Shown in pieces: positions 15,569 through 50,143 of a stretch of 64,000 nt of DNA (its first letter is position 1; every line of letters starts with the position of its first letter). The notes under the pieces are model-generated. The model was not told the origin of the DNA. It ran no database searches and saw nothing but the letters and a program-made list of their open reading frames with translations. A program made the translations under genes and the position numbers. The DNA is from an uncultured archaeon (GTDB lineage Archaea > Altiarchaeota > Altiarchaeia > IMC4 > QMZM01), in assembly GCA_964549685.1 (NCBI GenBank), contig CAZJVE010000001.1, positions 107,906 through 171,905 on the forward strand, given 5' to 3'.

Positions 15569-15583
15569 TAGAATATATGATAT

Positions 15584-20368: not shown

Positions 20369-20371
20369 TTC

Positions 20372-20400: not shown

Positions 20401-20423
20401 CTTTTTCTTATCTTAATACTAGC

Positions 20424-21464: not shown

Positions 21465-21465
21465 A

Positions 21466-22602: not shown

Positions 22603-22603
22603 G

Positions 22604-26338: not shown

Positions 26339-26342
26339 CTTG

Positions 26343-28763: not shown

Positions 28764-28802
28764 TATTTATAACTCTCTTACCCAATAAAAGACACCCAGA
28801 GA

Positions 28803-30699: not shown

Positions 30700-30746
30700 C
30701 TTACAAATACTGATATTCTTAGAAGTAGGTTAAGATAAACCTGTTT

Positions 30747-30905
30747 TTAGACCGATGCCTTGGCAGCCATCTTCTTGTTCTTTCTCCTTATCTTCCCTGT
30801 CTTCCCGCATTTCCTGCACTTTGTTGACCCAAGTGGGTTCTTTGCGTTGCATTCCATGCAGATTCCCTTGAAGATTCTGATCTCTGCCTCCTTGAATCGT
30901 GCCAT
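30747..30905 (-). CDS. rpl40e: 50S ribosomal protein L40e
   Basis: [23 protein letters not shown]...CRKCG zinc-ribbon L40e; the track ORF has a spurious N-terminal extension. Confidence 0.8.
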
Positions 30906-30976
30906 TTCAGGTATAATTACTATAAAGGCAAGGCATAAAAATGCGGAATTTAAGCCCTCCATCTTAATTTCTTAGG

Positions 30977-32392: not shown

Positions 32393-32450
32393 TTTCTGGA
32401 TTGGAGTGCTAAAATATCCCATATTTATCCGTGTAATCTAAGTTAGTTAT

Positions 32451-33155: not shown

Positions 33156-33228
33156 TTGCTATTTAACGCCTTATTCTGAAAGTATTAAACGCGAGGTTGC
33201 TGTTCACCGTAGCGAAATAGTACCCTAT

Positions 33229-33381
33229 AGCGGGATTGAGCAGCCAGGAGTGCTCGTCGGACGTATGGAGGTGTTATACATGCTCGTGCGGGCGAAGCTC
33301 ATATGAGGGTTTTTAACCAATCGTGAGAAAAAGTGCTTCTGAGAGACCCGAAGGTCGGTGGTTCAAATCCACCTCCCGCTA
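33229..33381 (+). tRNA. Initiator-type tRNA-Met(CAT) with two predicted introns (exons 33229..33260, 33297..33303, 33346..33381)
   Basis: A1:U72 acceptor AGCGGGA/TCCCGCT, D-loop AGCCAGGAG, T-arm GGTGG-TTCAAAT-CCACC, variable AGGTC. Joining the three exons gives anticodon arm UCGGG-CUCAUAA-CCCGA, an initiator signature. Confidence 0.55.
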
Positions 33382-33412
33382 TATTTTCTTTTAAAATTAT
33401 GGTGGTTGGTAA

Positions 33413-33772
33413 ATGGATATAACAACGAATACAGTTCAGGTTCTCACAGGCTCAACAATAGCTATACTTGCAACTTTTGTATATTCGGCACTCACTCGTG
33501 CTTTTTTGAGTGGGGGGTCATTCCGTAAAAAATGGGAGGCTGTGTTTATCACATTAGGAACAGCCTTTGCATTAGGCATGTTAACACCAAGCATAAACGA
33601 ATTCTGGCGGGAAGTAATCCCTCAAATTACTTATCTTCAATTGGTTGGTGTTTTGATAATGGTCGGAACATTCAGCGTAAATCAAATGGTGCATAATTGG
33701 CGACATAGCACCGGAACATCAATCATTCTCTACGGTGCCGGGTTGATACTCTTTGGTTATCGATACATATAA
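33413..33772 (+). CDS. Hypothetical membrane protein
   Basis: Four predicted TM helices. Confidence 0.4.
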   Translation: MDITTNTVQVLTGSTIAILATFVYSALTRAFLSGGSFRKKWEAVFITLGTAFALGMLTPSINEFWREVIPQITYLQLVGVLIMVGTFSVNQMVHNWRHSTGTSIILYGAGLILFGYRYI

Positions 33773-33779
33773 GAACCGG

Positions 33780-34574
33780 TCATAAAACCATCAAACTAAC
33801 CCCAAATCCAACAATCAGCCCCGCACAAATCGGGGGCAGTGCTGGAAGTGCGACTTTTTCTTGGTTCAGAATGTAGACAAAGAGTAGGGTTATGCCGATT
33901 AATCCCCCGGCTGCTGTGATGGCCGCGTTCGTGAAGGAATAATCCCTCATCACAGAGACCGAGAAGATAAGGGGAACTGCCAGGTCTCCCGTTCCGAGGC
34001 CAAGGAACCTGTCGCCGAAGGGGATTGTGAACATCAGCGGGATTTTGCCTTCGGCTCCCTTTGCGAGGGTTATCATGTGTTTTGTGCCGAAGACTGCAAC
34101 AAGGTCGTAGGCCGAGAGGATTAGGATGAGTATGAGGGCTGGGATGAATGCTATTGAGGAACCAAACAGCGCCCCGATGCCAGGAATCGTGAAGAGAAGG
34201 ACTATGTTCATGACTGCCGGGTTCCTGCTCTTCAGGATTGAGAGGATAAATAGAGCCGCTGCCAGAAGCAGGCCGATGAAATCGAAGAGAACCCAGAGGG
34301 TGAATGAAAGGCCGACTACTAGGAAGAAAAAGGACATAATTTTTATAATAAAATATAGCCCGAATTTCAGTAGCAGGAGCAGTATTCCCGTCCCGATGAG
34401 AATGTAAACGAAAATTATCAATGAGGTGAGGGGGTTATCCGGCTCCTCTATTACCGGGGCAATCTCCCCTGATTCTATCGCCCCTATCAGCTCGGAACCA
34501 ATATGCAGGCCCATCAGCTGAATGGAAACGTAAAGAAGGATTATCAGTATCAGGGGCTCGTATTTCATTCTCAT
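33780..34574 (-). CDS. Presenilin/signal-peptide-peptidase homologue (intramembrane aspartyl protease, A22 family)
   Basis: YD motif (SAYDLVAV), GxGD motif (GLGTGD), PAL motif (LPALPP) in a polytopic membrane protein. Confidence 0.7.
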   Translation of the reverse strand: MRMKYEPLILIILLYVSIQLMGLHIGSELIGAIESGEIAPVIEEPDNPLTSLIIFVYILIGTGILLLLLKFGLYFIIKIMSFFFLVVGLSFTLWVLFDFIGLLLAAALFILSILKSRNPAVMNIVLLFTIPGIGALFGSSIAFIPALILILILSAYDLVAVFGTKHMITLAKGAEGKIPLMFTIPFGDRFLGLGTGDLAVPLIFSVSVMRDYSFTNAAITAAGGLIGITLLFVYILNQEKVALPALPPICAGLIVGFGVSLMVL

Positions 34575-36595
34575 CTATGTTCTGTGAACATGAATTTCCC
34601 GTGCCTGGGCTCGTAGATTATTCCCTTTGTCTTTAATTCGGTTATTATCTTCTCTGCCTTGAACTTGTCTATCTCCTTGCCTTCTGCCTCTCTAATAATG
34701 TCCTCCATGTGAGCGGAGCCGTCGCCGCTTTCGGCAAGAAGCCCCCTTATGATGTCCTCCATCAGCTTTATCTTGTCCCTGTCCGATTTTGGATATTCCG
34801 CACCGATTCTGTCGATGTCTATCTCTCCTGTTGCGGCGTCATAGGCGACCTCCCTAAGCACGAAGTTTGTGAGTCTTATTGCTCTGTCTGCATCGCTGAC
34901 TGTTACCGCGTCGCTCAGCCTTATCTTTGCCGATGCCTCGGCCAGCCTTACTAACGCCTCTAGCTGTCTTGGGGTTGCCCTTACTGTTTCCTGGCTCCCG
35001 CCCCTCAAATCCACGTAGTACGCCTTTATCTTCTCCGCCGCATCGTCCGTCATGACGGGACGCATGTTCTTGCGCGAATATGCTATGTACTTCCTGAACA
35101 ATTCCGCATTAATTACCGGCTGGATTTCTTCGGCTTCCTCCGGCGTCTTGTGCATCTTGAGCATGTGGTCTGCTATTTCCGCGTCCTTCTCCTTGTCCAG
35201 GATGTCTCTGATAGGGAAAATGAGGTCAAATCTGCTTAGTAGGGTTGGGGGTATATCGAACTGCTCGCCCAGCGGCTTGTAGCTGTCGAACCTGCTGAAT
35301 TTTGGATTAGATGCTGCGAGGACCGCAGTATTTGCAATGAACCTTGTTACCATCCCAGCCTTCGCCACGCTAATGGTTTGCTGCTCCATCGCCTCGTGCA
35401 TGGCACTTCTGTCTTCCTTGTCCATCTTGTCGAACTCGTCAATGCAGACGACTCCGCCTCCTGCAAGAACCAGTGCTCCTGCCTTCAGGGTCCATCCACC
35501 CTCACCGAAGTCGTCCTTCTCTGCCGTGGCTGTAAGGCCCGCCCCGGTTGTGCCTTTGCCGGTAACATAGATGCTTTTTGGTGCTATCTGGTTAACGTAC
35601 TGAAGAATTCTCGATTTAGCGACACCGGGGTCTCCGACGAGAAGAAGATGTATATCCGGTCTGAGGGGGGTTCCGTCAGGAAGCCTCTTCCTTCCCCTTC
35701 CGCCAAAGAGCTGTAATGCGATGGCTTCCTTGACCTCGTTGTAGCCCCAAATTCCGGGGGCGATTGATGCTATTACATGGTCATGAATCTTGGGGTTCTT
35801 GGCAAACTTCTTAATCTCCCTCTCTTCTTTCTTGCTAATTTCGATGTCCTCGAACTCCCTGGCTATTCCCTCAATGTTGTTGCCTTCAATATATTTGAGG
35901 TAGACCGAGCCGCCTTTCTTCGGGGGGAGGAGTCTCATTATGCCCGTGATTACAACACGGTCTCCTGCATAGACCGCATCGGTCAAATCATCCTCCACCC
36001 ACACCTCTATCCTTCTCGCTTCCGCACCTCCCTTGAGCATCTCCAGCGGCTCCTGAATCTCCAGCTTCTGGATGTCTGTCAGTTTTGATTCCTCGGGTAC
36101 AAAGCGAAATTCCCGTCTCTTGCAGTTATTGCAGAACGGGGGCTGCTGCAGAAATCTTGTCGCCTGCGGCTCATCGTGCGATTCATTGCATTTATTGCAG
36201 TAGAATCTGCCGGTTTCAATCTTCGGGAAGATGTCAGTAATCTTGTTAACAAGGCCCTCAAGGGCCATCATCCCCCCTACATTTTTGGATCTGAGTTCTC
36301 TAACGAGAATAGTATAGCCCTTCTCCTTGGGGATGTTATAGAAACGGACGTTTATCCTGAGGTCGTCCATTAGTTCTGGCGCAACCGAGATTTTTTCCTT
36401 CAGAAGAGTCTGGAGGATTTCCAGTATATCGTCGGGATTCGCAATTAACTCCTCAGCAAGCCCGTGGTCAAATTTCTCAAGCTCTTCATAATTGATGAGG
36501 AGGCTTTTTACCTCGGGATAGAGCTCAGCAACCTTGTTTATGTCATTGGACTTCTTGTTTAGAAACCCCTCAAGCTTATCGTTGACTTTTTCCAT
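34571..36595 (-). CDS. mcm: MCM replicative helicase
   Basis: N-terminal Zn finger (CNKCN...CNNCK), Walker A GDPGVAKS, Walker B IDEFDKM, arginine finger, winged-helix C-terminus; size shows no intein. Confidence 0.9.
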   Translation of the reverse strand: MEKVNDKLEGFLNKKSNDINKVAELYPEVKSLLINYEELEKFDHGLAEELIANPDDILEILQTLLKEKISVAPELMDDLRINVRFYNIPKEKGYTILVRELRSKNVGGMMALEGLVNKITDIFPKIETGRFYCNKCNESHDEPQATRFLQQPPFCNNCKRREFRFVPEESKLTDIQKLEIQEPLEMLKGGAEARRIEVWVEDDLTDAVYAGDRVVITGIMRLLPPKKGGSVYLKYIEGNNIEGIAREFEDIEISKKEEREIKKFAKNPKIHDHVIASIAPGIWGYNEVKEAIALQLFGGRGRKRLPDGTPLRPDIHLLLVGDPGVAKSRILQYVNQIAPKSIYVTGKGTTGAGLTATAEKDDFGEGGWTLKAGALVLAGGGVVCIDEFDKMDKEDRSAMHEAMEQQTISVAKAGMVTRFIANTAVLAASNPKFSRFDSYKPLGEQFDIPPTLLSRFDLIFPIRDILDKEKDAEIADHMLKMHKTPEEAEEIQPVINAELFRKYIAYSRKNMRPVMTDDAAEKIKAYYVDLRGGSQETVRATPRQLEALVRLAEASAKIRLSDAVTVSDADRAIRLTNFVLREVAYDAATGEIDIDRIGAEYPKSDRDKIKLMEDIIRGLLAESGDGSAHMEDIIREAEGKEIDKFKAEKIITELKTKGIIYEPRHGKFMFTEHR

Positions 36596-36741
36596 CTTGC
36601 TGAAATTTCGGGAGGATTAATATAATAGGGGCACTTGGTAAAAAGGCAGTTTGGAATTTCTTGTGTTTTCAGCCTTATAGACAATTGTCGATTTTTATTC
36701 GCCTATGTATTTATACATATACGGATAAGTAATGGTATGAA

Positions 36742-37437
36742 TTGGACTCTGAAAGCGAGATCACACGGAGGATTGCAGGGGAAATCGTGCTGGCAGAGAA
36801 ACCAGGAAAGTCGATGAGGAAGTGGCGCGAGATCTTCGGCATTAAACAGAAGAGGCTTGCGCAAAAGCTTGGGATTTCGGCCTCGGTGATTTCGGATTAC
36901 GAGTCCGGAAGGAGGAAATCTCCAGGCATTGGGTTCGTGAGGAGATTCATAAAGGCTTTGGTTCGGGAGGACATCAAGGGCAGGCGTGAGTTGACGAAGA
37001 TGCTCTCCCCCGCCAGGAAACCGGATGCGATTCTCGGCATCAGGGAATTCCTGACACCGCTGCCTATCAAAAAGCTTGTGAAGGCGGTAAATGGCAGGGT
37101 TGTCGTAAGGGGGGGTATGAAGGACAAGGCGGTGTGGGGATATACCGTCATCGATTCGATAAAGGCAATCCTTGAGCTTTCCGAGACGGAGTTCATGAGC
37201 CTCTATGGAGCAAACGCCAAGAGGGCATTGATATTCACAAAGGTTCAAACGGGTCGGTCACCGATGATAGCGATAAAGGTGACCTCACCCAAACCGTCGG
37301 TAGTAATACTTCACGGCCTGAAGGCCGGGAAGGTGGACAAGCTAGCGGCAAGCATTGCGAAGAACGAGGGCATACCGCTCGTCGTTTCGGAGATGAGCGA
37401 TGAGGAGTTGACTAATAAGCTAAGGAAGCTCGCATAA
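36742..37437 (+). CDS. XRE-family HTH transcriptional regulator (TTG start)
   Basis: [21 protein letters not shown]; conserved position upstream of the HMGCS/thiolase/DUF35 operon. Confidence 0.6.
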
Positions 37438-37438
37438 A

Positions 37439-38491
37439 ATGGCTGTTGGAATTGTCGGCTATGGAACATATCTCCCGAAGTACAGGATAAAGGCTGAGGA
37501 GATTGCAAGGGTATGGGGCAAAGACCCGGAAGCTATGAAGAAGGGTCTTGGAGTTTATGAGAAGACAATCCCCAACCTGGATGAGGATGCTGCGACCATT
37601 GCTGTTGAAGCAGCCAGAAGTGCACTGAGGCATTCCGGAATTAACCCGGCAGATATAGGGGCAATCTACGTGGGCTCTGAGTCACATCCCTATGCCGTAA
37701 AGCCAACTGCGACTATTGTGAGCGCCGCAATAGAGGCAACTCCCGATTTAACTGCAGCAGACCTTGAATTCGCATGCAAGGCAGGGACTGCAGCAATTCA
37801 GTGCTGCATGGGTCTGGTCGAGGCAGGGAGGATTAAATATGGATTAGCAATCGGTTCTGATACATCTCAGGGGATGCCAGGAGATGCACTAGAGTATACC
37901 GCATCAGCAGGGGGTGCTGCCTTCATCATAGGGAATAACAAGCTGATTGCAGAGATTAAAGATACCTATTCCTTTACCACAGACACGCCGGACTTCTGGA
38001 GGAGGGAGGGTCAAGAATTCCCAAAGCACGGGGCAAGGTTTACCGGAGAGCCCGCTTATTTTAAACACGTAATTAATTGCTCGAAAAAGATAATGGAGAG
38101 AAACAAGCTGAGTCCAAAAGACTTCCAGTATGCTGTGTTTCATCAGCCCAACGGCAGATTCCCGGCGAAGGCTGCGAAGATACTCGGCTTCGACCAGGAG
38201 CAGATAAAACTGGGATTGCTGACGCCATGGATTGGCAATACCTATTCGGGGTCCACTCCACTGGGCCTTGCGAGAATTCTCGACGAGGCGAAGGGGGGCG
38301 ATTTGATTCTTGCAACGTCCTATGGCTCTGGTGCCGGTTCCGACTCGTTTATAATCGAGGTAACAAAGGAGAATGAGAAGAGGAGGAATGCAAAACCGCT
38401 CCAGTGTTTCATCGACAGGAAGGAGTACGTTGATTATGCCATATATGCAAAGCTGAAGGGTAAGATTAAGGGGGTTGTCCTGGAGAAATGA
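37439..38491 (+). CDS. Hydroxymethylglutaryl-CoA synthase
   Basis: Archaeal HMGCS start [17 protein letters not shown] and catalytic Cys region. Confidence 0.85.
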
Positions 38492-39654
38492 GTTCAAAGG
38501 TCGGGATTATAGGCGTCGGTATGACAAAGTTCGGCGAGCACTGGGATAGAAGATATAGGGATTTGATTGTCGATGCGGGTGTTGAAGCAATTAAAGATGC
38601 AGGGATTGAAGGAAATCAGATTGGGGGTATGTATGTGGGCTCCATGTCACCCGGCCTTTTTGCCGAGCAGGAGCACGTCTCAGCACTGGTTGCCGACTAT
38701 TCGGGGCTTGCTGGAATTCCCGCCACCAGAGTAGAGGCTGCATGTGCCTCTGGAGGCGTTGCATTAAGAGAGGCCTATCTTGCAGTGAAATCCGGCGAGA
38801 TGGATATCGTTGTTGCAGGAGGAGTCGAAAAGATGACCGACGTTCCAACTGGCTCTGCTGCCGTCGCTCTTATGGGAGCAGGCGACCAGGAGTGGGAGGC
38901 ATTCAAGGGAGCGACCTTCCCGAGTTTGTATGCATTAATGGCAAGGAGGCATATGGTTGAATATGGAACTACTATTGAACAGATTTCCCAGGTGGCTGTT
39001 AAGAGCCACGACAATGCCTCGCATAACGAGGATGCCCACTACGGCTTCAAGGTCACTTTAGAGCAGGTCATGAATTCAAGTCCGGTTGCCGACCCATTGA
39101 GAATTCTCCATTGTTCTGGAATTACTGATGGAGCAGCGACGGTAATTCTTGCCTCGGAGGAAAAGGCCAAGGAGCTGGTTGATGACCCGGTATGGATTAA
39201 AGCATCGGCTCTGGCTACTGACACCATAGCGCTGCATGACAGGAAATCCCTATCAAAAACCGAAGCCACCGTTCTTGCTGCAAGGAAGGCCTATAAGGCC
39301 GCAGAAATCAAACCGGAAGACGTTGATTTTGCAGAGGTCCATGACGCCTTTTCAATTGCCGAGATTCTAGCAATAGAGGCATTGGATTTCTGTGATTTTG
39401 GAGAAGGTGGGAAGCTGACACACAATGGGGAGACTGCGCTTAAGGGCAGAATTCCCGTCAACCCCTCGGGCGGGCTGAAAGGAAAGGGCCATCCCGTCGG
39501 AGCGACAGGAATCGCCCAGGCAATCGAGGCCGTGCTGCAGATAAGGGGTAAGGCCGGGGAGCGGCAGGTCAAGGGTGCTGAGACGGGTTTGATTCATAAT
39601 GTCGGCGGGTCGGGAGCCACCTGTGTTATCCATATATTGAGCGGAGAAAAATGA
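38488..39654 (+). CDS. Acetyl-CoA C-acetyltransferase (archaeal thiolase)
   Basis: Thiolase fold with the active-site Cys region (AACASGG). Confidence 0.85.
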
Positions 39655-40052
39655 CAAAGGGTTTGGCAACTCACTGGAGATTGGTTCCACAGAGGTACAA
39701 TCTGATTGGAACTCATTGCAAGAATTGCAACAGTAGGTTCTTCCCGCAGAGGAAGATTTGTCCCAAGTGCAGGAGAACCGGAAGCATCGAGGATTTCAAG
39801 TTCTCTGGGAAGGGGGAGATTTACAGCTATACCGTTGTTTGCGCAGCGCCGCAGGGCTTTGAGTACCAGGCGCCCTATGTTCTAGCAATAGTGAAGATGA
39901 AGGAGGGGCCGTTCATTACAGCGCAGATTGTCGACTGCAAACCGGAAGAGATTGAGATTGGTAAGAAGGTCGAGACCGTGTTCAGGAGGGTAATTGCCGA
40001 TGGGAGCTCAGGAATAATAAGGTATGGGTATAAGTTCAGGCTGAGGGATTGA
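39651..40052 (+). CDS. DUF35 OB-fold / Zn-ribbon protein (thiolase-HMGCS scaffold)
   Basis: CKNCNSRFFPQRKICPKCRR zinc ribbon; conserved third gene of this operon. Confidence 0.8.
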   Translation: MTKGLATHWRLVPQRYNLIGTHCKNCNSRFFPQRKICPKCRRTGSIEDFKFSGKGEIYSYTVVCAAPQGFEYQAPYVLAIVKMKEGPFITAQIVDCKPEEIEIGKKVETVFRRVIADGSSGIIRYGYKFRLRD

Positions 40053-40079
40053 GATTTAACAGATAACGTTAATAGGAAT

Positions 40080-40328
40080 ATGGAGATGAAAAAATATATT
40101 TTGGTTTTGCTGGTTGTTGTTGCCGTAATTGTTATTGGTTATTTTGTTTCTCAAGGCCAGGAGAGCGGTATGGGGGAATCAATGACAGAAAAACTTTGCG
40201 AAGAGCAGGGCGGGGCTTGGAGTGAAATGGAAATTCTGCGTGAGGAAGGGCATGATTTGTTTTACCAGTGTGAATGCCCAGACAACGGACCATGGATAAG
40301 GGAGGGTACGGTAGAAAGTTGTAAATAG
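40080..40328 (+). CDS. Small secreted or membrane-anchored Cys-containing protein
   Basis: N-terminal hydrophobic helix and four Cys. Confidence 0.35.
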   Translation: MEMKKYILVLLVVVAVIVIGYFVSQGQESGMGESMTEKLCEEQGGAWSEMEILREEGHDLFYQCECPDNGPWIREGTVESCK

Positions 40329-40344
40329 CTCCTTCTGGGGTTAA

Positions 40345-41520
40345 TCAAAAAGTACACACAACCCCATCCAGGCACATCTGCGTGACGTCAGTGACCTTCT
40401 CGAGCCACCTGTCAGTGACTTCTCTCGCCTTATTCTCTATGCCCTTGTCCCCTATAACCTGAACCGATGCCAAGAGGGGCTGGTCAATGGGCTTTCCAAT
40501 CTGGCTCATTATTCTGACGTAGACCTGCTCGGCTCCCTCTTCGGCAATTTCCTCTGCAATCTTGTTTGAGAGGATGTTGTAGAGCTTGCCCACGTGGTTT
40601 ACCGGGTTCTTTCCTGCCGTTGCCTCCATGGACATGGGCCGGTATGGGGTGATGAGGCCGTTGGCCCTGTTTCCTCTGCCGACGGAACCGTCGTCGCCGT
40701 GCTCAGCAGATGTTCCTGTCACCGTCAGGAAAAGCGAGCCCTTCTCGTAATCGTCTCCTGTGTTTATATGAACCTCAACGTCCTTGTCTGTAATTCCTGC
40801 GATGAAGTCCTTGAGCTTTGAGTTCATGTCCCCGATTGCTGACTTGTAGTGATCCAGGTCCTCCAGATATTTTGAAACCATTGCGGCAGCAATAGTGAGA
40901 GTGATTTTGTCGTTGTTCCTGACGCCCATCACCTTGATGTCCTCTCCCACCTCTTTCATTCCCATCTTTCCAGTGATGTACTTTTCGCTTTCCAGAACAA
41001 GCTTTTCTGTCAGGGACAGGGGAGCGAAGCTCACTCCAAAGGAGGTGTCGTTGGAATTTGGAACCCCCTTCTGCGCAAAGACGTGCCTGAGGTCCGAAGA
41101 GCCGTGGCCCAGCTTCTCCTCAATCTCGACGTGGGAGTTAATGTCAATGTTTGGGAAATTCTCACTGATGTATTTTTTGGCTGCTTCTATTGCTATGGTT
41201 CCAACAGGAATCTCTTCGCCCTCAACAACGGTGGTTGCCCGCCCGCTTAATAGTATGTATATGGGCCGTGTTATTTCTCCGGCGCCGAACTCGGGCTTTG
41301 CGCCGCCGCCAACAAGCTCCACCTGGTCGGTGTTGTGGTGAAGAATCTCGCCGTGCCTTTGCATATACTCCTTGGAAAGGGCCCTTGAGATTGACTCTGC
41401 AATTCCGTCGCAGATGGAGTCCGGGTGCCCTATACCCTTCCTCTCCACGAGCTCTACGGGTTGTTTCTCCAGTGGAATCTCGTCAGGGAATTCAAGAACA
41501 ATGTTTCTCATTTTAATCAA
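40345..41520 (-). CDS. S-adenosylmethionine synthetase, archaeal type
   Basis: Archaeal MAT N-terminus ([13 protein letters not shown]) and overall family match. Confidence 0.88.
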
Positions 41521-41553
41521 GAGATAAATAATAGGATTGCTTAATAAAAAAGG

Positions 41554-42198
41554 TCAGATTATGCTCGCCTTCAGTACGTTTGGGTGGGGGAGGTCCATGG
41601 TTCCGGCACCGTGGCCGCTTCTTCCCTCAGGTGGGGCGTTGGTGAATTCATCAACGGCTGCTGCGAGAATCGCCATTCCTGTGGGGGTTGCAATCTCTTT
41701 GTCGATTAGAAATTCTGTAGGGAATGAATTGTTTTTTATTATCTCCTGGGTTGCCGGGGCGATGGTGCCTGTTGATATCATGGAGCAGGATATGGTTGAA
41801 TGAATAAGGCCGAGGTTCTCCAGTGCCAGAGAGAATGCTACTGCATCAACTATGCTGTCCCTTGCTTCATGGAGGTGAACCTGTTCGAGTGGGGTTTTGT
41901 GAACCCTGGATTCAGCCATTGCAAGATTGTGGAGGATTCCGGTGGAGAGGGTTTTTGCCTGCTCAGAGATTCTGAGAGCGTCTATATCAGCAAGCAGTTC
42001 TGTGTATCTTCTGGAGTCGGAAACAAATTTTACGTCGAATTTCTTTGCCGGGATTCCTGCCTTTGTTACATCCCTGAGAGAGAGCTCGGCTATGCCTGAG
42101 AGGGTTTCCTTCATGGGTTTGAAATCTGCTCCCAGGTCTATAAGGGCGCCGACCAGCATGTCTCCGCTGACTCCATGGGAACAGTCTAAGTGGAGCAT
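41554..42198 (-). CDS. larC: LarC N-terminal domain protein (nickel-pincer cofactor nickel insertion; DUF111), C-terminal domain missing
   Basis: [25 protein letters not shown] is a typical LarC start; only ~214 aa is present. Confidence 0.6.
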
Positions 42199-42848
42199 TT
42201 TAGAATCTTGCAGGCAAGGACTGCGGCTCCATAGCCGTTGTCTATGTTCACCACAGCGACCGGGGAGCATGAATTCAGCATTGCGTTCAGGGCTGCCTGT
42301 CCCTTGGCGCCGGTGCCATAGCCGACCGATGTCGGGACGCCTATCACTGGGGCAGAAACCAGACCGGAGACTATGGACGGGAGTGCGCCCTCCATCCCTG
42401 CGATTACTATCAGGGCTCTTGCGTCCTTCATCTTATCGAGGGCTGGAAAAAGGCGGTGGATTCCTGCAATGCCAACATCGTAGGAAGTAATTACCTTGCC
42501 ACCAAGCTCCTCGGCGACCGCCTTTGCCTCCTCGGCTACAGGAATGTCGGATGTTCCAGCAGTGACGATTCCTATGGTTCCAAGGGGCTTTGTCCTGAAA
42601 TTCTTTTTCTTGATTACAAGGACGCTGCCCTTTTTGTTATGGTTGATGGTTAAATTCTTTATTTTTAATTTTTTTAGAATCTCCTTTGTCTTCTCTTCAT
42701 CAATTTTTGTGATAATAATTCTCCCGGACGTGCTGAGGAATTCATCCGTGATTTCTATCAGGTCATCAGCTGTTTTTCCGAGGCCGAAAACAACCTCTGG
42801 AATTCCGCAGCGCTTCTCCCTCCCCGTGTCGTGATTCAGGATTTCCAT
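42186..42848 (-). CDS. larB: LarB (PurE-like pyridinium-3,5-biscarboxylic acid mononucleotide synthase)
   Basis: PurE-like core [16 protein letters not shown]...AGMEGALPS. Confidence 0.7.
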
Positions 42849-42849
42849 T

Positions 42850-43509
42850 CTATCCGATGATATTGAGTATCCCCCTTAGCTCCTCCACCGTTAGCTGCCC
42901 GGGAGCAGACTCCTTCCCCTGGGTGGGGGAGGCGTAGGTGAGGTAAGCGCCCAGAGCCGGTCCCAAAACCCGAGATACCTTCCCCAACTCGCCCATTGCT
43001 ATTGCGATTACAGGAATCTTGGTGGGGTTTTCTGTTATTGCCGCAAGGGTGTTGAGAACATCGGCTTGTTTTTTTGGCATGAGCGCCACCTTTGCTATGT
43101 CTGCCCCGGCCTCTTCTTCCTGTTTCAGTAGGGAGAGGATTTCCTCTTTGCCCGGAGTAGAGTTGAAGTCATGGTGGGAAAGAATAGCCTTGACTCCTTT
43201 CTCCTTGGCTTCCCTGACGAGAGAATCTCTGAGCTTGGTTTCTGTTTTTAGTTCTATTGTTAAATGGCTCGAGAATTCACTTGCCTTTCTCAGGATGTCG
43301 ATTCTTTCCGTTTCTGTTCCTGCAAAATTCCCGCCCTCGAATTCCGGCATACATGTTGCAATTATCGGCTTCTGGATTTCACTTAGTTCATCAATACTGG
43401 AAAATTCCGTCAGATAATCAAGTCTCAGCTCTATCGAATCCGCGTTTGTCGAATTTGCAGCTTCTATCATTGAATCCAATTCTTTTTCGATTATTGGGGC
43501 GCAAATCAT
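42850..43509 (-). CDS. aroD: 3-dehydroquinate dehydratase type I
   Basis: Type I DHQase TIM barrel with the catalytic Lys region. Confidence 0.8.
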
Positions 43510-43552
43510 TTTTGTAGGGAGATATTTATATATTGAAGATATTATAATTACT

Positions 43553-44314
43553 ATGGCTAGGGTAATCGGTGTTCTTTCGGGGAAGGGTGGTGTTGGAAAG
43601 ACTACTCTCGTTTCTAATCTTGGTGTGTCTTTGGCTCAGGAGGGTAAGAACGTCGCCATTGTTGATGCAAACCTTACCGGCGCTAATCTGGGACTTCACT
43701 TCGGCTTGCTAAGCTATCCGGTTTCCATTCACGACGTCATGAGTGATGAGGCGCTGATAACGGATGCCATGTACAAGCACCCATCTGGAGTAGACATAGT
43801 TCCCGCGTCCCTCTCTATCGAGCATATAGATACCGAGCCAAGGAACCTGAGGAGCTCGATTGACGAATTTCTTGGCGATAAGGATTTCGTTCTGATTGAT
43901 GCCGCAACCGGTCTGGACAGGGAGACATTAAATGCGATAGACATGTCTGATGAGGTTCTTATTGTCACGCATCCGGAGCTTCCTACGATTTCAGATGCAT
44001 TAAGAACAAAGACCATAGCAGAGAAGTACGGTAAGGATGTCATAGGTATCGTCCTTAACAGAGTGAACAGGAAGGACGAGCTGAATAAGGATAACGTGTC
44101 ATCATTCTTTGAGCTTCCTGTTATCGGCGCTATTCCTGACGACCCCGTGGTTAGGAAATCCATCGAAGCCAAGAATCCGGTAGTTTTGAGTCACCCGAAC
44201 CACAGGGTAAGCAACGAGGTAAGGAGGGTGTCAAGCCATGTATTGGGCAAGAAATACAAACCAGTAAGCAACGGCGGCTTCCTGGACAGGCTTCTGGCTA
44301 TGTTTAAATGGTGA
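43553..44314 (+). CDS. minD: MinD/ParA-family ATPase
   Basis: Deviant Walker A GKGGVGKTT. Confidence 0.8.
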   Translation: MARVIGVLSGKGGVGKTTLVSNLGVSLAQEGKNVAIVDANLTGANLGLHFGLLSYPVSIHDVMSDEALITDAMYKHPSGVDIVPASLSIEHIDTEPRNLRSSIDEFLGDKDFVLIDAATGLDRETLNAIDMSDEVLIVTHPELPTISDALRTKTIAEKYGKDVIGIVLNRVNRKDELNKDNVSSFFELPVIGAIPDDPVVRKSIEAKNPVVLSHPNHRVSNEVRRVSSHVLGKKYKPVSNGGFLDRLLAMFKW

Positions 44315-44697
44315 TTCAGGTTCTCAACAAGAGCAGGGGTTTTGTTATAAGCGAATCCTGTGGTGTAGCTGATTCTTTCTTCTCCAGGTTCAGGGGGCTG
44401 ATGCTTTCAAAGCCAAGGGACCTGGTTCTTGTTTCTCCGAGGGAGGACATAAAGTCCTCGGCGATTCACATGCTGTTTATGAGGTTTCCCATAGATGCTG
44501 TGTGGGTAGATTCAAAAATGATTGTTGTTGATATTAAAAAAAATATTAAACCTAATTCCCTAGGGATTTTCAGGCCGGGGAAGCCGGCTAAGTTTGTTGT
44601 GGAGCTGGGGGTGGGGAAGTTAGGCACTACAGAAGTTGGTGACATAATTGAGTTCTCACATCCCGGCCCCGCCGAGCCGCTTCATCAGCCGCTTTAG
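44308..44697 (+). CDS. DUF192 family protein; carries an in-frame copy of the recurrent 15-mer
   Basis: COG1430-like pattern; KLGTT is encoded by AAGTTAGGCACTACA at 44617..44631. Confidence 0.55.
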   Translation: MVIQVLNKSRGFVISESCGVADSFFSRFRGLMLSKPRDLVLVSPREDIKSSAIHMLFMRFPIDAVWVDSKMIVVDIKKNIKPNSLGIFRPGKPAKFVVELGVGKLGTTEVGDIIEFSHPGPAEPLHQPL

Positions 44698-45972
44698 CTT
44701 TCTTTCATCTCCGAACATGCGCATCATCTTCTTCATCTTCTTGTGATAGTTGAGGAGTTCGCGAACCTCCTCCGGCTTGGTTCCTGAGCCGGATGAGATT
44801 CTGCTGATTCGTTCTCTTTTGATTAGGGTGGGGTCCTCCCTTTCTTGGGCAGTCATCGAGTCCATTATGTAGATGAACTTGTCCAGCTTTTCTTCCTGCA
44901 TATCCAGCATGTCCTTGGGTATCTTTGCCCCAAAGGGGAGCATGCCCGCAACCTGTTTCATTGGGCCCATCTTCTTCATCTGCTGGATTTGAGAATAAAT
45001 GTCGTTCATGTTGAATTTCCCAGACATCATCCTTTCGGCGGCCTTTTCGTCAAAGTCTACCTCCTTTGCCTTCTCGAGCAGGCCCTCCAGGTCGCCGAAG
45101 CCGATGAGTCTTGATACAAACCCTTCTGGGTTGAATTCCTCGAAGTCGTTGATGTGCTCTCCTGTCCCTATGAAATTCACCCCGGAGCCGGTTGCGGAGC
45201 AGGCAGAGATTGCGCCCCCGCCCTTTGCCGTGCCGTCGAGCTTCGTGAGGATTATGCCATCTACTCTTGATGAGTTCTTGAATGCCTCGGCCTCCTTCCC
45301 TGCCTGCTGGCCCGTGGTTCCGTCGAGGATTAGAAGAACCCTCTCGGGCTTTATCTCCTTGTAGATTTTGTTGATGTCCTTCATCAGCTCCTTGTCCAGT
45401 TTGTGCCTGCCTTCAGAGTCTATTAGAATCAGGCCCTCGTTCTTGAACTCCTTGATTCCTTCCTTTATTGTGTTGAGGGCGTTCTTCTCTTCCGGGTTTC
45501 CGTAGAAGGGCAGCTTAATCTCTTCGGAGAGCTGCTTCAGCTGTTCATAGGCCGCGGGCCTGAATGTATCCGCGCAGATGAGTTTTGGATGGAGGCCCTT
45601 TTTCTTAAAGTACCTGGCAAGTTTTGCTACCGTGGTTGTTTTGCCGCTCCCTTGCGTTCCAACGAGAAGGAGTTTTTGTCCGTCCTGTATCTCGACCGGT
45701 TCCCCCTTCCCAAGTAAATTCACCAGCTCCTCGTATGTTATCCTTATAAGGTTCTCCTTTCTGGAGAGCATCCCGGGGGGCTTCTCAAGAAGACCCCTAT
45801 CCTCAATTCTCTTGGACAGCTCAAAAACCTGCTCTATCTGAACATCCGCTGAAAGAAGGGTCTTCTGAATCTCCTTGGTGTAATTCTTTACAGTCTTCTT
45901 ATCGACCACTACCGCTTTCCTCAGGTTCGTGATGGAGCTCTGCAGGCCCTCCGATAACTTTTCGAATACCAT
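44656..45972 (-). CDS. srp54: Signal recognition particle protein SRP54
   Basis: N domain, G domain (GTQGSGKTT, DTFRPAA) and Met-rich M domain. Confidence 0.9.
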   Translation of the reverse strand: MVFEKLSEGLQSSITNLRKAVVVDKKTVKNYTKEIQKTLLSADVQIEQVFELSKRIEDRGLLEKPPGMLSRKENLIRITYEELVNLLGKGEPVEIQDGQKLLLVGTQGSGKTTTVAKLARYFKKKGLHPKLICADTFRPAAYEQLKQLSEEIKLPFYGNPEEKNALNTIKEGIKEFKNEGLILIDSEGRHKLDKELMKDINKIYKEIKPERVLLILDGTTGQQAGKEAEAFKNSSRVDGIILTKLDGTAKGGGAISACSATGSGVNFIGTGEHINDFEEFNPEGFVSRLIGFGDLEGLLEKAKEVDFDEKAAERMMSGKFNMNDIYSQIQQMKKMGPMKQVAGMLPFGAKIPKDMLDMQEEKLDKFIYIMDSMTAQEREDPTLIKRERISRISSGSGTKPEEVRELLNYHKKMKKMMRMFGDERKLKRLMKRLGGAGM

Positions 45973-45973
45973 T

Positions 45974-46657
45974 CTATTGAATCTCCTCTGAGATTATCCT
46001 CGTGAGGTTATCTTCTGGGATTAAGCCCTTGTAAGTCCGGTCACCTATGACCACCGCGGGGGTTTCAGTCACATTGTGGCTCCTTTTCAGGAGGTTGACT
46101 ATGGGCTCGTCGAGGTCGGAATTGAGGACAAACACTATTATTCTGTCCTTGAATTCCCCATCATATAGGTTGTCGAGTATGTGGCCCTGCTCAACGCATT
46201 CCTGGCACGGAACGGAATAGAAATAGAGGATTACCGCAACCTCGCGGTTGCATCTTTCCTTCACGTAGTTGTTGAGAATCCATGCTTTTGTGGATAAAAG
46301 AGCATAGTCTCTCCTGAGCGAGTCGAACTCCTTTCCCTTGGCATTTTCGAGGTCCTCTCCAAGCCCCCTTACCTTCTTTGTCGTATCATCGACTAGTGCC
46401 GAGAGGGAGTCACATGAGAGGTTATTGCCTATAATGCTGAGATATGCGTACTCCAGCTGAAGGTTTTCGGTCCTTCTCTGCAGCGATGCATACTCCTCTT
46501 CGGATGGAAGGCGGTCTATTCTGCTCTGTAGTATGCTTATCTTGCCCTCAGTATAATCAATCAGCGTGCCCTCTATGAAAAGCCCGGACATCACGCCAAT
46601 CAGGTAAAAGAAGATGGAAAGAACTGCTGCTGCCAGGTATACTCTCTTGTTTTGCAT
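45974..46657 (-). CDS. Membrane-anchored thioredoxin-fold protein with coiled-coil
   Basis: N-terminal TM, coiled-coil, CQEC redox motif. Confidence 0.45.
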   Translation of the reverse strand: MQNKRVYLAAAVLSIFFYLIGVMSGLFIEGTLIDYTEGKISILQSRIDRLPSEEEYASLQRRTENLQLEYAYLSIIGNNLSCDSLSALVDDTTKKVRGLGEDLENAKGKEFDSLRRDYALLSTKAWILNNYVKERCNREVAVILYFYSVPCQECVEQGHILDNLYDGEFKDRIIVFVLNSDLDEPIVNLLKRSHNVTETPAVVIGDRTYKGLIPEDNLTRIISEEIQ

Positions 46658-46701
46658 ATTTTAACGTATTTACGAAATATTAATAAAAAGCAGAGTATAC
46701 A

Positions 46702-47979
46702 ATGGATTTTGTCCACTCTACGAGTTTGATGTTGTATAATGCCTTTTTAATCCCGGTGGCTTTCTTTTCGTTCGTGTATTATATCGTGGCGCTGAGAACC
46801 ATACTGGTTAGGGAGGAGGAGAATGAAACCGACATGACAGAGATAGATTGGCCCAGAGTAACCGTTCAGATTCCCACATTTAATGAGCCCGTTGCCATAA
46901 GGTGCGCGAGAAGCTGCTTGAATTTCGACTATCCGAAAGATAGGTTTGAGGTAATAATTGGCGATGATAGCACCAACCCCGATGTGTCAAAGGCCATTGA
47001 TGAGTTTGTAGATGAGAACAGCGGGTTAGTAAGAGTGACAAGAAGGGGACACAATAGAGGATTCAAAGCGGGTAATCTAAATCACATGTTGAGGTTCTCA
47101 GATGGGGACATTGTCGTAATATTCGATTCCGACTTCACGGCCAAGAAGGATTTTCTGAAGAGGGTTGTGATGCCATTTATTAAAGACGATAAGGTTGGTT
47201 GTGTCCAAGCGGAGTGGGATTTTCTGAATTCAGGAAAGAATTATATCTCAAAGCTCTCGACGACGCTTTTGATGTTTTATTATTCCCTCATAGTCCCCAT
47301 AAACAAAATGCTTGGCGTGCCTTTCCTCTTCGGTTCCGGAGAGGCAATAAGAAAGGCCCTGTTGCTGGAGATGGGTGGCTGGCACGAGGGTAGCCTTACA
47401 GAGGATACAGAATTCTCGCTCAGGTTGTTCAAAGAGGGCTACAGAATAGTCTATCTGGATGATGTCAAGGCCACGGGGGAGGTGCCTTACACATTGAAGG
47501 GGCTTCTAAGCCAGCAGAGGAGGTGGGCCTATGGAAATACAAAGGCGTTTCTGGGCCATGCAAGGTCAATCCTCTTCGGTCCGTTTTCGTTTTTGCAGAA
47601 AACGATGATGACTTATACCACCTCCATAGGTTATCTGTCAAATCTGTTTCTTCTGCTGTTCCTGTTTGCGGGAATGGCCTCATTTTTTTCACAGCCGGCC
47701 GCCCCGATAGATATACCAAGGTTCGTAAACCAGACAGTGAGCGTGTTTTTAATTACCTCCGGTTTCCTTTTGGGAGGAATTGCCGCACTCTATAAGAAGA
47801 GTAAGCTCAGGATATTGCTTCCTTCAATCGTCTCGGTCTTAACGGTTGGTTTTTTGGTTTCCTTCAATGTTTGCGTTGGCTTTTTCAAGGCCGTTTCTGG
47901 TAAGGAGATGGTCTGGTCCGCGATAAACAAAGAGGGTAATTTCGATATCATTCCCCAAGAACGGCTGGGGGAGACGTAA
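46702..47979 (+). CDS. Processive family-2 glycosyltransferase (membrane synthase)
   Basis: GT-A fold with DxD and the QQRRW motif; multiple C-terminal TM helices. Confidence 0.75.
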   Translation: MDFVHSTSLMLYNAFLIPVAFFSFVYYIVALRTILVREEENETDMTEIDWPRVTVQIPTFNEPVAIRCARSCLNFDYPKDRFEVIIGDDSTNPDVSKAIDEFVDENSGLVRVTRRGHNRGFKAGNLNHMLRFSDGDIVVIFDSDFTAKKDFLKRVVMPFIKDDKVGCVQAEWDFLNSGKNYISKLSTTLLMFYYSLIVPINKMLGVPFLFGSGEAIRKALLLEMGGWHEGSLTEDTEFSLRLFKEGYRIVYLDDVKATGEVPYTLKGLLSQQRRWAYGNTKAFLGHARSILFGPFSFLQKTMMTYTTSIGYLSNLFLLLFLFAGMASFFSQPAAPIDIPRFVNQTVSVFLITSGFLLGGIAALYKKSKLRILLPSIVSVLTVGFLVSFNVCVGFFKAVSGKEMVWSAINKEGNFDIIPQERLGET

Positions 47980-49242
47980 ATGATTGACCTAATTCTCATA
48001 GTAATATTTTCGGTACTGATTGTTCTTCACGGCTCCTGGGTTTTTCTTCTCCTTTACCCTGAAAGAAAGAGATATGATGAGATTTCGCCGGATATCTCCA
48101 TAATCATGCCCGCCCACAACGAGGAGGCGATAATAGAATCTACAGTAAAGAGCGTTCTTGAAGCAGAATACTCCGGAGGTAGGGAGATTATTGTAGTAAA
48201 TGACGGTTCAACTGATAGGACCGCAGAAATAGTCAGAGGCCTGGCAGAAAAAGACGAGAGAATTCACCTGTATGAGACAGAGCATGTAGGAAAGGCGAAG
48301 GCAATAAACCGGGGCGTTGAAAATGCAATCAACGAGATAGTCGTGGTGCTTGATGCGGACTCCAGGTTGGATTCCAAGGCACTGGTCAAGATTGTGAAGC
48401 CCTTCTCCGACGAGAAGGTGGGGGGTGTTTCAGGGATAATAAGGGCAATCCAGACAAATAATCCCTTAACCTGGTTTCAGGACCTGGAGTATATAATAAC
48501 GTCCGGGTGGAGATACACCTGCAACAGGCTGAATAGCACATACATTTTTCCTGGGTTTGCAGCATTCAGGAAAGGTGCCCTTTTGAAGACGGGCGGATTT
48601 TCAAGCGATACGCTCTCCGAGGACTTTGAGATTGGTTTGAGGTTGAGAAAGGAGGGTCATGGGTTGGTTATGTCGTGGGCGACAATCTATACGAAGGTTC
48701 CTGAGACGTTTTCCGGCCTAATGAAACAGAGAATCCGCTGGGGCAGGGGCACCATCCAGGTGATAAGGAAGCATTTTGATGTGCCGTTCAACAAGAAGTA
48801 CGGCGCCATTGGATTCTATGGGATTCCGACGCAGATGTACTGGTTCATTCACGGCCTGACCTATCTGCCTGTCGTTTTTTACCAGATATTGAGCGGCTAT
48901 TTGAAGTATTTTGTCGCATCCGACAATTCCCTCTCCCTGGAGGCAGCGGCGTACTTCTTCCGGTGGTTCTCGTTTTATGGGATGGTTGATTTCACCTACA
49001 GGACCTTCATTGGAGAATATGAGATGTCCCTGGTCTTTGTTCTGACCCTTGTGATGTTCTGCCTCTACATTCTATATGATGCCCTCGTGATAATGAAGAT
49101 AGGGAAGCCGTCGATTCGCTTCCTCTTTGTTATTTTTTTCCTCTTTCCATATTCTTTATTCGCTCTGTCGCTTCATGTGGTCCCGCTCTTTTATGAGCTG
49201 TTAAAACCAGGAAGCGCCAACGTCTGGGAAAAGAATAGATAA
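47980..49242 (+). CDS. Processive family-2 glycosyltransferase (second copy)
   Basis: GT-A fold with QRIRW; start overlaps the stop of the upstream GT2. Confidence 0.75.
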   Translation: MIDLILIVIFSVLIVLHGSWVFLLLYPERKRYDEISPDISIIMPAHNEEAIIESTVKSVLEAEYSGGREIIVVNDGSTDRTAEIVRGLAEKDERIHLYETEHVGKAKAINRGVENAINEIVVVLDADSRLDSKALVKIVKPFSDEKVGGVSGIIRAIQTNNPLTWFQDLEYIITSGWRYTCNRLNSTYIFPGFAAFRKGALLKTGGFSSDTLSEDFEIGLRLRKEGHGLVMSWATIYTKVPETFSGLMKQRIRWGRGTIQVIRKHFDVPFNKKYGAIGFYGIPTQMYWFIHGLTYLPVVFYQILSGYLKYFVASDNSLSLEAAAYFFRWFSFYGMVDFTYRTFIGEYEMSLVFVLTLVMFCLYILYDALVIMKIGKPSIRFLFVIFFLFPYSLFALSLHVVPLFYELLKPGSANVWEKNR

Positions 49243-49243
49243 A

Positions 49244-49849
49244 ATGACAAAAAAGGAACATCCGGAGTTTTTGCTGGAGCTGAAGAGGCAGCTGGTGCAT
49301 TTGTTCATGGGCATAGTGATTTCTCTCTCAGTCTACTTCGTGTATCCGTTTATGGGCCGGTTTGTCCTTCTGCCATTGATTGTTATACTGTTATTCATCT
49401 TTACCCTCCCGCGGCTGATAACGGACATATGGCTGTTCAACCATCTCTTCCTGCACTTCGAGAGGGAAGACGACATAATGAATTTTCCGTTCAGGGGCGC
49501 GTTCTGGTACGGGGTGGGGATAATCCCCCCGATTCTGTTCCTGCCGCTGAATCCCGCCTGCGCAGTGATTGCTGTTCTGTCTGCGGGGGATTCCATGTCA
49601 ACCATAGTCGGGAAATTCCTTGGTAAGAGAAGATACGGCCATAAGAGCGCCGAGGGTTTTCTGTCCTTTTTCGTCTTCGGCTTCCTTGCCGCCTCGGTGT
49701 TTGTAAGCCCAGGGCTGGCCATTATGTTTGCCTTTCTAGGAGCAGTGATGGAGTTCCTCACGTTTATAGACGATAACCTTTTAATCCCCCTGGGCCTGAG
49801 CGTTTTTTATGTCCTGGCTTCGAACATAATTAGGTTGAATCTAATGTGA
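49244..49849 (+). CDS. CTP-dependent polyprenol/dolichol kinase-like membrane protein (Sec59/CdsA superfamily)
   Basis: GDSMSTIVGKFLGKRRYGHKSAEG motif in a polytopic membrane protein. Confidence 0.5.
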   Translation: MTKKEHPEFLLELKRQLVHLFMGIVISLSVYFVYPFMGRFVLLPLIVILLFIFTLPRLITDIWLFNHLFLHFEREDDIMNFPFRGAFWYGVGIIPPILFLPLNPACAVIAVLSAGDSMSTIVGKFLGKRRYGHKSAEGFLSFFVFGFLAASVFVSPGLAIMFAFLGAVMEFLTFIDDNLLIPLGLSVFYVLASNIIRLNLM

Positions 49850-49866
49850 TTATCCAATCATTCGTT

Positions 49867-49941
49867 GGGCCCGTAGCCTAGCCTGGATAGGGCACCGGAC
49901 TTCTAATCCGGAGATCACGGGTTCGAATCCCGTCGGGTCCG
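49867..49941 (+). tRNA. tRNA-Arg (anticodon TCT)
   Basis: Cloverleaf: acceptor GGGCCCG/CGGGTCC, D-arm GCCT..GGGC, anticodon arm CCGGA-CTTCTAA-TCCGG, T-arm ACGGG-TTCGAAT-CCCGT. Confidence 0.85.
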
Positions 49942-50125
49942 TTGAACTGGCGTCAGTGTGGCGGAGCGACTTCGTCGCTCCGACATATGTCCGAGAGGCT
50001 GCGCCTCTCGGCCACATTCACACCGGAGCGAGTTTGTGGGTTCTTTGAACCCACATAACGCACTGTGAATTCCCCTGCGGTTCAGGGGGGAATTCTGCCA
50101 GTCACGTGTGGGTTTTTCTTTTAGA
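49942..50125 (+). other. Compact multi-hairpin structured element immediately downstream of tRNA-Arg, ending in an oligo-T tract (candidate ncRNA or DNA palindrome cluster)
   Basis: Four near-perfect stem-loops: 49963..49981, 49991..50011, 50036..50054 and 50067..50095. Flanking imperfect direct repeats GGCGTCAGTGTGG / GCCAGTCACGTGTGG. T-run at 50111..50125. Confidence 0.5.
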
Positions 50126-50143
50126 AAAACCAAAAGATTAAAA

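Follow-up and report, generated by a model that had tools for sequence, protein, structure and literature searches.

A hairpin-rich block directly downstream of a tRNA-Arg(TCT) gene in an Altiarchaeal genome is very probably a recent insertion, specific to the lineage in which it was found. It lies in a 64-kb stretch of DNA, which was analysed as a whole and is referred to here as the window. Comparison with relatives and with known elements suggests to us, at a probability of roughly one half, that the block derives from a mobile element. It would be either a small non-autonomous palindromic element, similar to palindrome-associated transposable elements (PATEs) or small mobile repeats (SMRs), or a short composite of two such elements, and it would be passively co-transcribed with the tRNA without a function for the host. 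That it was moved specifically by the HUH/PATE mechanism is a more tentative proposal, made by analogy with described elements.

The orthologous loci (L034, L004/L014, L035 and L018/L019) were compared with the window by alignment. In these four closest relatives GTTCGGTTTTTCTTTTAGAAAAACC stands directly 3' of the tRNA and is followed by the start of an 82-aa gene, and the block is absent. The empty site reads GGGTCCG(T/C)TCGGTTTTTCTTTTAGAAAAACC, with flanks near-identical to those in the window. The 166-167 extra bases of the window replace, or follow, the single C of an ancestral GTTC|GG. One base of the left junction is unlike the empty site (GTTC vs GTTG). After the insert, the host sequence continues from precisely the junction of the empty site. 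The alignment with the four empty-site relatives showed no target-site duplication at the insert.

The DNA identity of the neighbouring 201-aa gene to the window is 94.9% for L034, 91.7% for L004, 87.8% for L035 and 82.8% for L019, which nests the window beside L034. Since the site is empty in four relatives and the window is nested beside one of them, the insertion is most likely recent; if the block had been present ancestrally, several identical and precise deletions would be needed. This gives the locus a modest value of its own as a dated example of how a small piece of DNA was precisely inserted in a phylum of uncultivated archaea; its flanks diverge by less than ~5% from those of the nearest empty-site relative.

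The block is also present in two independent Logan assemblies, L001 and L003 (SRR24302412 and SRR8146443), which hold its two halves with identical sequence. Both contigs break within the second hairpin (H2), and de Bruijn assemblers often break at palindromes. The identical block sequence in independent read sets rules out an assembly artefact.

The host tRNA-Arg(TCT) was placed at 49866-49942 by ARAGORN and, with slightly narrower boundaries and 69.8 bits, by Rfam. The insertion starts three bases past its discriminator base. Upstream lie two family-2 glycosyltransferase genes and the 201-aa gene (49244-49849), which encodes a dolichol-kinase-like membrane protein whose homologues carry the labels Candidatus Altiarchaeota or Altiarchaeales. 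Downstream are the 82-aa ORF (50144-50392) and the genes of a DUF167 protein, a Toprim protein and an AAA+/Mg-chelatase-like ATPase.

The original prediction described four near-perfect stem-loops after the tRNA-Arg and a palindrome between the first two of them. By sequence inspection and repeat search, all of these were present exactly as described (Table 1). The larger composite palindrome at 49956-50017 (62 nt), which is made up of H1, H2 and TGTGGC...GCCACA, is centred on the palindrome ACATATGT. H1 and H2 are identical in 16/21 positions and, as read from the sequence, all of their stem differences (3/3) are compensated on the opposite arm. This compensated similarity and the composite palindrome show that hairpin formation itself is preserved or generated here, as in transposase-recognised hairpins and REP-like units. 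H1 is followed by ACA.

Table 1. Features of the tRNA-Arg(TCT) locus and its insertion (positions in the window)
Feature	Position	Strand	Source
tRNA-Arg(TCT), host gene	49867..49941	+	ARAGORN; Rfam RF00005
Insertion, 166-167 bp, non-coding, four hairpins	49944/5..50110	.	Alignment with four empty-site relatives
Left terminal imperfect direct repeat, CTGGCGTCAGTGTGG	49947..49961	+	End-versus-end local alignment
H1, CGGAGCGAC-TTC-GTCGCTCCG, perfect 9-bp stem, 3-nt loop	49962..49982	.	Hairpin search
Palindrome between H1 and H2, ACATATGT	49983..49990	.	Repeat analysis
H2, CCGAGAGGC-TGC-GCCTCTCGG, perfect 9-bp stem, 3-nt loop	49991..50011	.	Hairpin search
H3, TGTGGGTTC-TTT-GAACCCACA, perfect 9-bp stem, 3-nt loop	50035..50055	.	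Hairpin search
H4, GAATTCCCCTG-CGGTT-CAGGGGGGAATTC, 11-bp stem, one bulged G, 5-nt loop	50067..50095	.	Repeat search
Right terminal imperfect direct repeat, CTGCCAGTCACGTGTGG	50095..50111	+	Local alignment of ends
Native host hairpin, GGTTTTTCT-TTT-AGAAAAACC, carries the oligo-T terminator of the tRNA	50111..50131	.	Conserved in insert-free relatives

H1 and H4 are the near-terminal palindromes of the insert, 17-18 nt from its left boundary and 15 nt from its right boundary, respectively. They are dissimilar to each other, and both arms of H4 end in GAATTC. Each of the four hairpin sequences is single-copy within the window. The flanking direct repeats that had been reported, CTGGC-GTCA-GTGTGG and CTGCCAGTCACGTGTGG, are real, but their significance is modest (p about 0.012). 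In the minimum-energy fold, the first bases of the left repeat pair with 50095-50104 and form a closing stem. Only one inverted repeat is present, TGAACTGGC paired with GCCAGTCA; it is weak (p = 0.06), and 6-8 nt separate it from the right end. The insert has a GC content of 58%, compared with 48% in the window, and it is too short, and on the tRNA strand too rich in stop codons, to code for a protein.

After correction for GC content, the block was the top folding outlier of the window (z = -4.5; the next best region reached -2.7). Perfect hairpins with a 9-bp stem and a 3-nt loop occur only four times in the 64 kb, all of them inside 49962-50131. Folded as RNA, positions 49943-50125 gave -87.8 kcal/mol on the plus strand (z = -5.8) and -89.0 kcal/mol on the minus strand (z = -8.2), and the minus strand folded as single-stranded DNA reached z = -10. 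The stems of H1-H3 hold 27 uninterrupted Watson-Crick base pairs and not a single G-U pair. Since the stems are purely Watson-Crick and fold equally on both strands, the block has no strand-specific RNA signature. Equal or better folding of the minus strand marks a DNA palindrome and argues against an evolved RNA.

The terminal T-rich tract, which had been taken as a part of the element, has to be assigned elsewhere. It belongs to a fifth hairpin, that of the host, which is present in the relatives that lack the insert, and its T5 tract occupies 50113-50117. This native hairpin is unchanged in L004, L014, L034 and L035, and in L018/L019 its 3' arm is one base shorter. The insert landed exactly at its 5' foot and separates the tRNA from its own oligo-T terminator; inside the insert there is no T-run longer than three. 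Since the insert precedes the oligo-T and its own T-runs do not exceed three, read-through by the archaeal RNA polymerase is expected, and we reasonably infer from this arrangement that the block is co-transcribed with the tRNA.

The resulting transcript would be a pre-tRNA with a closed, very stable and structured 3' trailer of ~170 nt, which RNase Z would cut off. When the tRNA was co-folded with the insert it retained its cloverleaf, and the two formed separate domains; the cloverleaf would thus stay intact in the precursor as well. Transcription of the trailer would be a passive consequence of the landing position, with no sign of a host function. The insertion changed neither the native hairpin nor the 35 nt that lead up to the ATG of the 82-aa gene, which may be a reason why it was tolerated. 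The hairpin may also double as the TATA region of that gene, which starts at 50144. The landing damaged neither the tRNA, nor the terminator, nor the start of the downstream gene.

Multiple copies are a hallmark of mobile elements. A blastn-short search of the 64-kb window and 37 related loci matched only chance 11-13-mers, and the copy number seen in the window and the fetched loci is one. One exact 23-mer gave 0 matches in JGI metagenomes. The one match among viral contigs, a 17-mer, falls in a GC-rich coding region and is an unrelated chance match. By blastn, a phage collection contained no match to the insert and a plasmid collection contained one of 28 nt (E = 0.1). We also compared the concatenated six-frame translation of the insert with 5.8 billion predicted proteins, in order to catch spurious ORF calls over other copies, and there was no match. 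The 64-kb window holds no gene for TnpB, a Y2 transposase or any other transposase. Palindromic hexamers did not serve as a mark of foreign DNA: CATATG and CACGTG occur at the expected frequency, and GAATTC is strongly over-represented in the host itself (97 copies in the window vs 17-31 expected, 2 of them within the 166-nt insert). Should more copies or a partner transposase come to light, the block would represent a new family of non-autonomous elements together with its target rule.

Candidate parents of such an element are IS200/IS605 insertion sequences. In L004, L014 and L021, a TnpB-only element of this family stands after TTAA about 270 bp downstream; in the window, L003 and L035 that site is empty. 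The hairpin at the right end of this element, CCAAAAACC-GTA-GGTTTTTGG, has a perfect 9-bp stem and a 3-nt loop. The homologues of its TnpB number in the thousands, and many are labelled Altiarchaeota. From this distribution, the parent family is clearly active in the clade. When the insert was compared with the ends of four Altiarchaeal IS200/IS605 elements, the best match was the 9-mer TGAATGTGG (p = 0.013, uncorrected, 14 tests), which is the start of the left end of the L014 element; after correction for multiple tests, the similarity to these ends is not significant. The minus strand of the insert ends with ...AGTTCAA| at the tRNA and the right end of the IS family with ...AG(T/C)TCAC|, a likeness that was spotted post hoc.

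A PATE- or SMR-like element would move as single-stranded DNA, and its hairpins would be recognised by a transposase encoded elsewhere in the genome. Such an element would have landed three bases 3' of the tRNA-Arg(TCT), at the 5' foot of the terminator hairpin. The changed base at the left junction, however, is not predicted by a clean peel-and-paste insertion.

Other relatives carry different DNA at the same tRNA. At the identical nucleotide, L016 (73% protein identity) bears an insert of its own, about 250 nt long, which differs from that of the window, is rich in hairpins and also begins with AACTG. At its far end stands a degenerate copy of the tRNA 3' end (p = 0.002), after which a Y2-transposase gene follows. 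Homology between this insert and that of the window was not significant (p = 0.07-0.23). In L006, a 31-nt copy of the 5' part and a 20-nt copy of the 3' part of the tRNA flank inserts of 133 nt and 115 nt, and L007 has a 5' tRNA fragment together with a cluster of four perfect hairpins with 9-10-bp stems. The inserts of L006 and L007 likewise showed no significant homology to the insert of the window. These loci mark the 3' flank of tRNA-Arg(TCT) as a place where small hairpin-rich DNA has landed repeatedly in Altiarchaeota.

Such a position raises the question of an integrase. The 3' end of a tRNA is the classic location for integrative elements, and the block could be a scar of site-specific integration and excision at a tRNA-Arg att site. 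It would then represent the ends of an integrative plasmid or virus that had used an integrase of the tyrosine or SSV type and has since lost its body by deletion. The tRNA fragment duplications at the same tRNA in L006, L007 and L016 (p = 0.002 for L016) point in this direction. Nevertheless, the insert of the window contains no copy of the tRNA 3' end (p = 0.59-0.92): the 3' part of the tRNA gave p = 0.87 against the insert and p = 0.59 against its right end, and the empty-site sequence gave p = 0.92 against the insert. This test has power, because it detected the tRNA-end repeat of L016 (p = 0.002). There is also no partial copy of tRNA-Arg anywhere in the 64 kb, no integrase remnant, and no viral contig with this tRNA 3' end. 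Moreover, with a junction as clean as the one observed, the secondary deletion would have to end precisely at the att boundary. We consider such a scar rather unlikely. The original prediction had offered, among other options, a DNA-level palindrome cluster or an insertion relic at the tRNA 3' end. That option came closest to what we found; its integrase form, an att relic, is disfavoured by the lack of a tRNA 3'-end repeat (p = 0.6-0.9).

The block may instead be non-mobile DNA, either filler captured during double-strand-break repair or a palindrome built up locally by template switching beside the native hairpin, although we think this improbable. It is single-copy everywhere we searched, and one base of the left junction is changed, as is often the case at repair junctions. 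H3 resembles both junctions over short stretches (GGGTCCGTTGAAC with GGGTTCTTTGAAC, and TGTGGGTTCTT with TGTGGGTTTTT), the insert hairpins share the geometry of a 9-bp stem and a 3-nt loop with the native hairpin, and the host-favoured GAATTC is frequent in the insert (2 in 166 nt). However, template switching turns existing sequence into inverted repeats and does not generate ~166 nt de novo. Similarity between the insert and the neighbouring sequence does not reach significance (p > 0.5), and no intermediates of stepwise growth were seen, since the relatives are empty and the window is full.

As its lead idea, the original prediction had named a new kind of small RNA linked to the tRNA, or a module for processing or stability, and it had itself counted a lack of conservation in related genomes against this. 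The block is absent from all four closest relatives and no homologue was found in the collections searched, so a conserved RNA is not supported on those terms. Comparison of related genomes for covariation in the stems had also been proposed. The orthologous site in the four relatives is empty, and the collections searched gave no homologue with stems to compare. A conserved structured sRNA gene is not supported, as the orthologous site is empty in L034, L035, L004/L014 and L018/L019.

The remark that the block does not match SRP RNA or RNase P can be extended to C/D and H/ACA RNAs, ribozymes, rRNA fragments and the other known RNA families. At gathering thresholds, the tRNA was the sole Rfam match in the insert region. 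At E <= 10 (49700-50300), the sole match that overlaps the insert was YrlA, which is at chance level: it scores 15 bits compared with a gathering score of 69 (E = 3.9), spans 49889-50010 and begins inside the tRNA. An archaeal H/ACA guide sRNA was likewise rejected. Such an RNA would have an internal pseudouridylation pocket and a K-turn or K-loop ahead of its ACA, but on inspection the 9-bp stems of H1-H3 run without interruption up to their 3-nt loops and leave no pocket, and no snoRNA family of Rfam matched inside the insert.

Another reading is a functional structured RNA that was newly acquired and is co-expressed with the tRNA. It could be a stable trailer-derived sRNA, or an orphan omega-RNA-like guide scaffold for a TnpB-type nuclease that came with a protein-less derivative of IS200/IS605. 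Transcription is expected at the position of the block, which follows the tRNA and precedes the first oligo-T run, and the block folds into a closed domain of high stability without disturbing the tRNA; furthermore, PATEs often carry omega-RNAs (PMC10055086). Several results speak against it. The block is missing from all four closest relatives, it has no homologue in the collections searched that could show covariation and no Rfam family even at E <= 10, and it shows no similarity to the right end or the tnpB 3' region of the insertion sequence in the neighbouring clade. It is also atypical of evolved RNAs to consist of perfect Watson-Crick palindromes whose loops are 3 nt long, which lack G-U pairs and which are equally stable on both strands. 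We give a functional RNA a low probability. The block should not be annotated as a new RNA gene, because it is young and lineage-specific DNA; in this respect the result is mainly a clean negative.

A bolder possibility, which we regard as a long shot, connects the inserts described above. They might belong to an undescribed class of tiny, protein-less hairpin-cluster elements in Altiarchaeota, which would home to the first bases after tRNA-Arg(TCT) at ...GGGTCCGTT(C)| and might ride on the tRNA promoter as structured trailer RNAs, possibly as orphan TnpB guide scaffolds. Least probable by far is a regulatory role, in which the palindromes would form an operator array that binds a protein and controls the 82-aa gene or the tRNA. 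Three 21-bp palindromes of the same geometry (9 bp, 3 nt, 9 bp) do precede the probable promoter of that gene at a short distance, but their sequences differ from one another, the block is absent from relatives in which the downstream gene and the intergenic sequence are unchanged, and no regulator gene arrived with it.

An insertion derived from a mobile element remains our preferred reading, and we compared it with known systems. Archaeal att-site remnants, left by SSV-type or pTN3-type integrases, share the location at a tRNA 3' end, and the neighbouring lineages show the corresponding duplications of tRNA fragments. The insert of the window differs from them in having neither a duplicated tRNA segment nor an integrase fragment, and its junction is clean. 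Bacterial REP/BIME clusters are similar in being clustered extragenic palindromes 3' of a gene, with compensated arms as in H1 and H2 and with G-T-G-G-type motifs at the hairpin feet. REPs, however, occur in tens to hundreds per genome, whereas there is no other copy of the present hairpins within 64 kb. REP/BIME clusters are mobilised by RAYT (Y1 HUH) transposases, and we know of no RAYT/REP system described in archaea. Classical MITEs are also small, non-coding and structured, and they vary in presence and absence among strains. We rejected a classical MITE, as the insert lacks a target-site duplication, true terminal inverted repeats and ends related to a transposase element.

The SMR-A small mobile repeats of Haloquadratum are closer. 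They are about 110 bp in length (PMC3119063) and, as with our insert, they are small and non-coding and make no target duplication. SMR-A inserts in or beside palindromes, and the present insert stands at the foot of the native terminator palindrome. Unlike the insert, SMR-A has prominent terminal inverted repeats and dozens of copies, while the inverted repeat of the insert is weak (p = 0.06) and lies 6-8 nt inside its right end.

PATEs were described in Haloquadratum walsbyi as protein-less derivatives of IS200/IS605 (IS1341-type) elements (PMC3119063). They are defined by the lack of terminal inverted repeats, palindromes near both ends, no target duplication, a length too short for a protein, and strain-specific insertion (PMC3119063). 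Protein-less PATE-like companions of IS200/IS605 elements, often with omega-RNAs, are also known from Geobacillus (PMC10055086). The insert departs from PATEs in several points: it is known from one copy, its near-terminal hairpins are dissimilar, one junction base is changed, it has no significant match to the ends of the examined Altiarchaeal IS200/IS605 elements, and no conserved target oligonucleotide has been demonstrated. In every point of the structural definition it agrees with them. It has no convincing terminal inverted repeats (p = 0.06, and not terminal), and its palindromes lie 17-18 and 15 nt from the ends. The insertion is precise and strain-specific, without target duplication and with a contiguous empty site in the relatives. 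It is far too short for a protein, and the parent IS family is abundant in the clade. By this comparison the insert looks like a PATE or a small mobile repeat, and we file it as a candidate member of either group.

Across the 64-kb window, the most over-represented hexamer is GAATTC. It occurs 97 times, against 16.7 occurrences expected from base composition and 31.1 expected under a first-order Markov model, and two of the copies lie within the hairpin-rich insert that follows tRNA-Arg(TCT). An enrichment of this size is unusual for palindromic restriction-type sites.

The contigs of two independent Logan assemblies that carry the two halves of the insert (L001 and L003) both break inside its second hairpin, and a third Logan assembly (L002) breaks inside the tRNA. 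These breaks probably arise from the behaviour of the assembler at palindromes or repeats, but they could also reflect population heterogeneity at the insert site.

The native hairpin of the host tRNA, which lies just outside the insert, carries T-runs on both strands and therefore looks like a bidirectional terminator. Comparable palindromes with T and A runs were found downstream of genes at other Altiarchaeota loci. Since its TTTTAGAAAAA is positioned about 25 nt upstream of the ATG (50144) of the 82-aa gene, it may also serve as the TATA box of a leaderless gene. The 82-aa protein (window 50144-50392) had no Pfam matches. It is highly conserved in all close relatives, where it adjoins the tRNA and the DUF167 gene.

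Positions of the features described in the window and in related loci (L handles)
Feature	Position	Detail
GAATTC examples	window 50067 and 50090	within the insert
Contig breaks in hairpin 2	L001 end, ~window 50015; L003 start, ~window 49996	
Native palindrome and start of the 82-aa gene	window 50111-50146	GGTTTTTCT-TTT-AGAAAAACC
Empty site of the TnpB-only element	window ~50385-50393	ACGCTTTAAGATG
TnpB-only element	L014 1583-2975	also in L004 and L021
Region with partial tRNA-Arg(TCT) copies	L006 3097-3470	
Region with a partial tRNA-Arg(TCT) copy	L007 3095-3389	
Hairpin-rich insert and Y2_Tnp gene	L016 1382-2434	also in L015 and L017

At two related loci from two species, L006 and L007, the full tRNA-Arg(TCT) gene is flanked by partial copies of itself. 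L006 has a 31-nt 5' fragment 133 nt upstream of the full gene and a 20-nt 3' fragment 115 nt downstream of it. L007 has a 5' fragment, and the roughly 200 nt after it contain four perfect hairpins (9-10-bp stems, 3-4-nt loops). Both share the conserved 5' tRNA fragment and the hairpin after it, ...AACCCTTTTCTT..AAGAA.

In the closest relatives, a TnpB-only element (IS1341-type, IS200/IS605-family) is inserted after TTAA, with the 82-aa gene on one side and the DUF167 gene on the other. Its empty site is uninterrupted in the window and in the related loci L003 and L035. The right ends of elements of this family in Altiarchaeota terminate in ...AG(T/C)TCAC|, and the TnpB family is very large there.

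In the related locus L016, about 250 nt of hairpin-rich DNA are inserted behind the tRNA, precisely where the window has its own insert (...GGGTCCGTTC|AACTG...). The L016 insert terminates in sequence that repeats the tRNA 3' end in degenerate form (p = 0.002). It is followed, on the opposite strand, by a 255-aa Y2_Tnp gene (PF04986), which is IS91-like.
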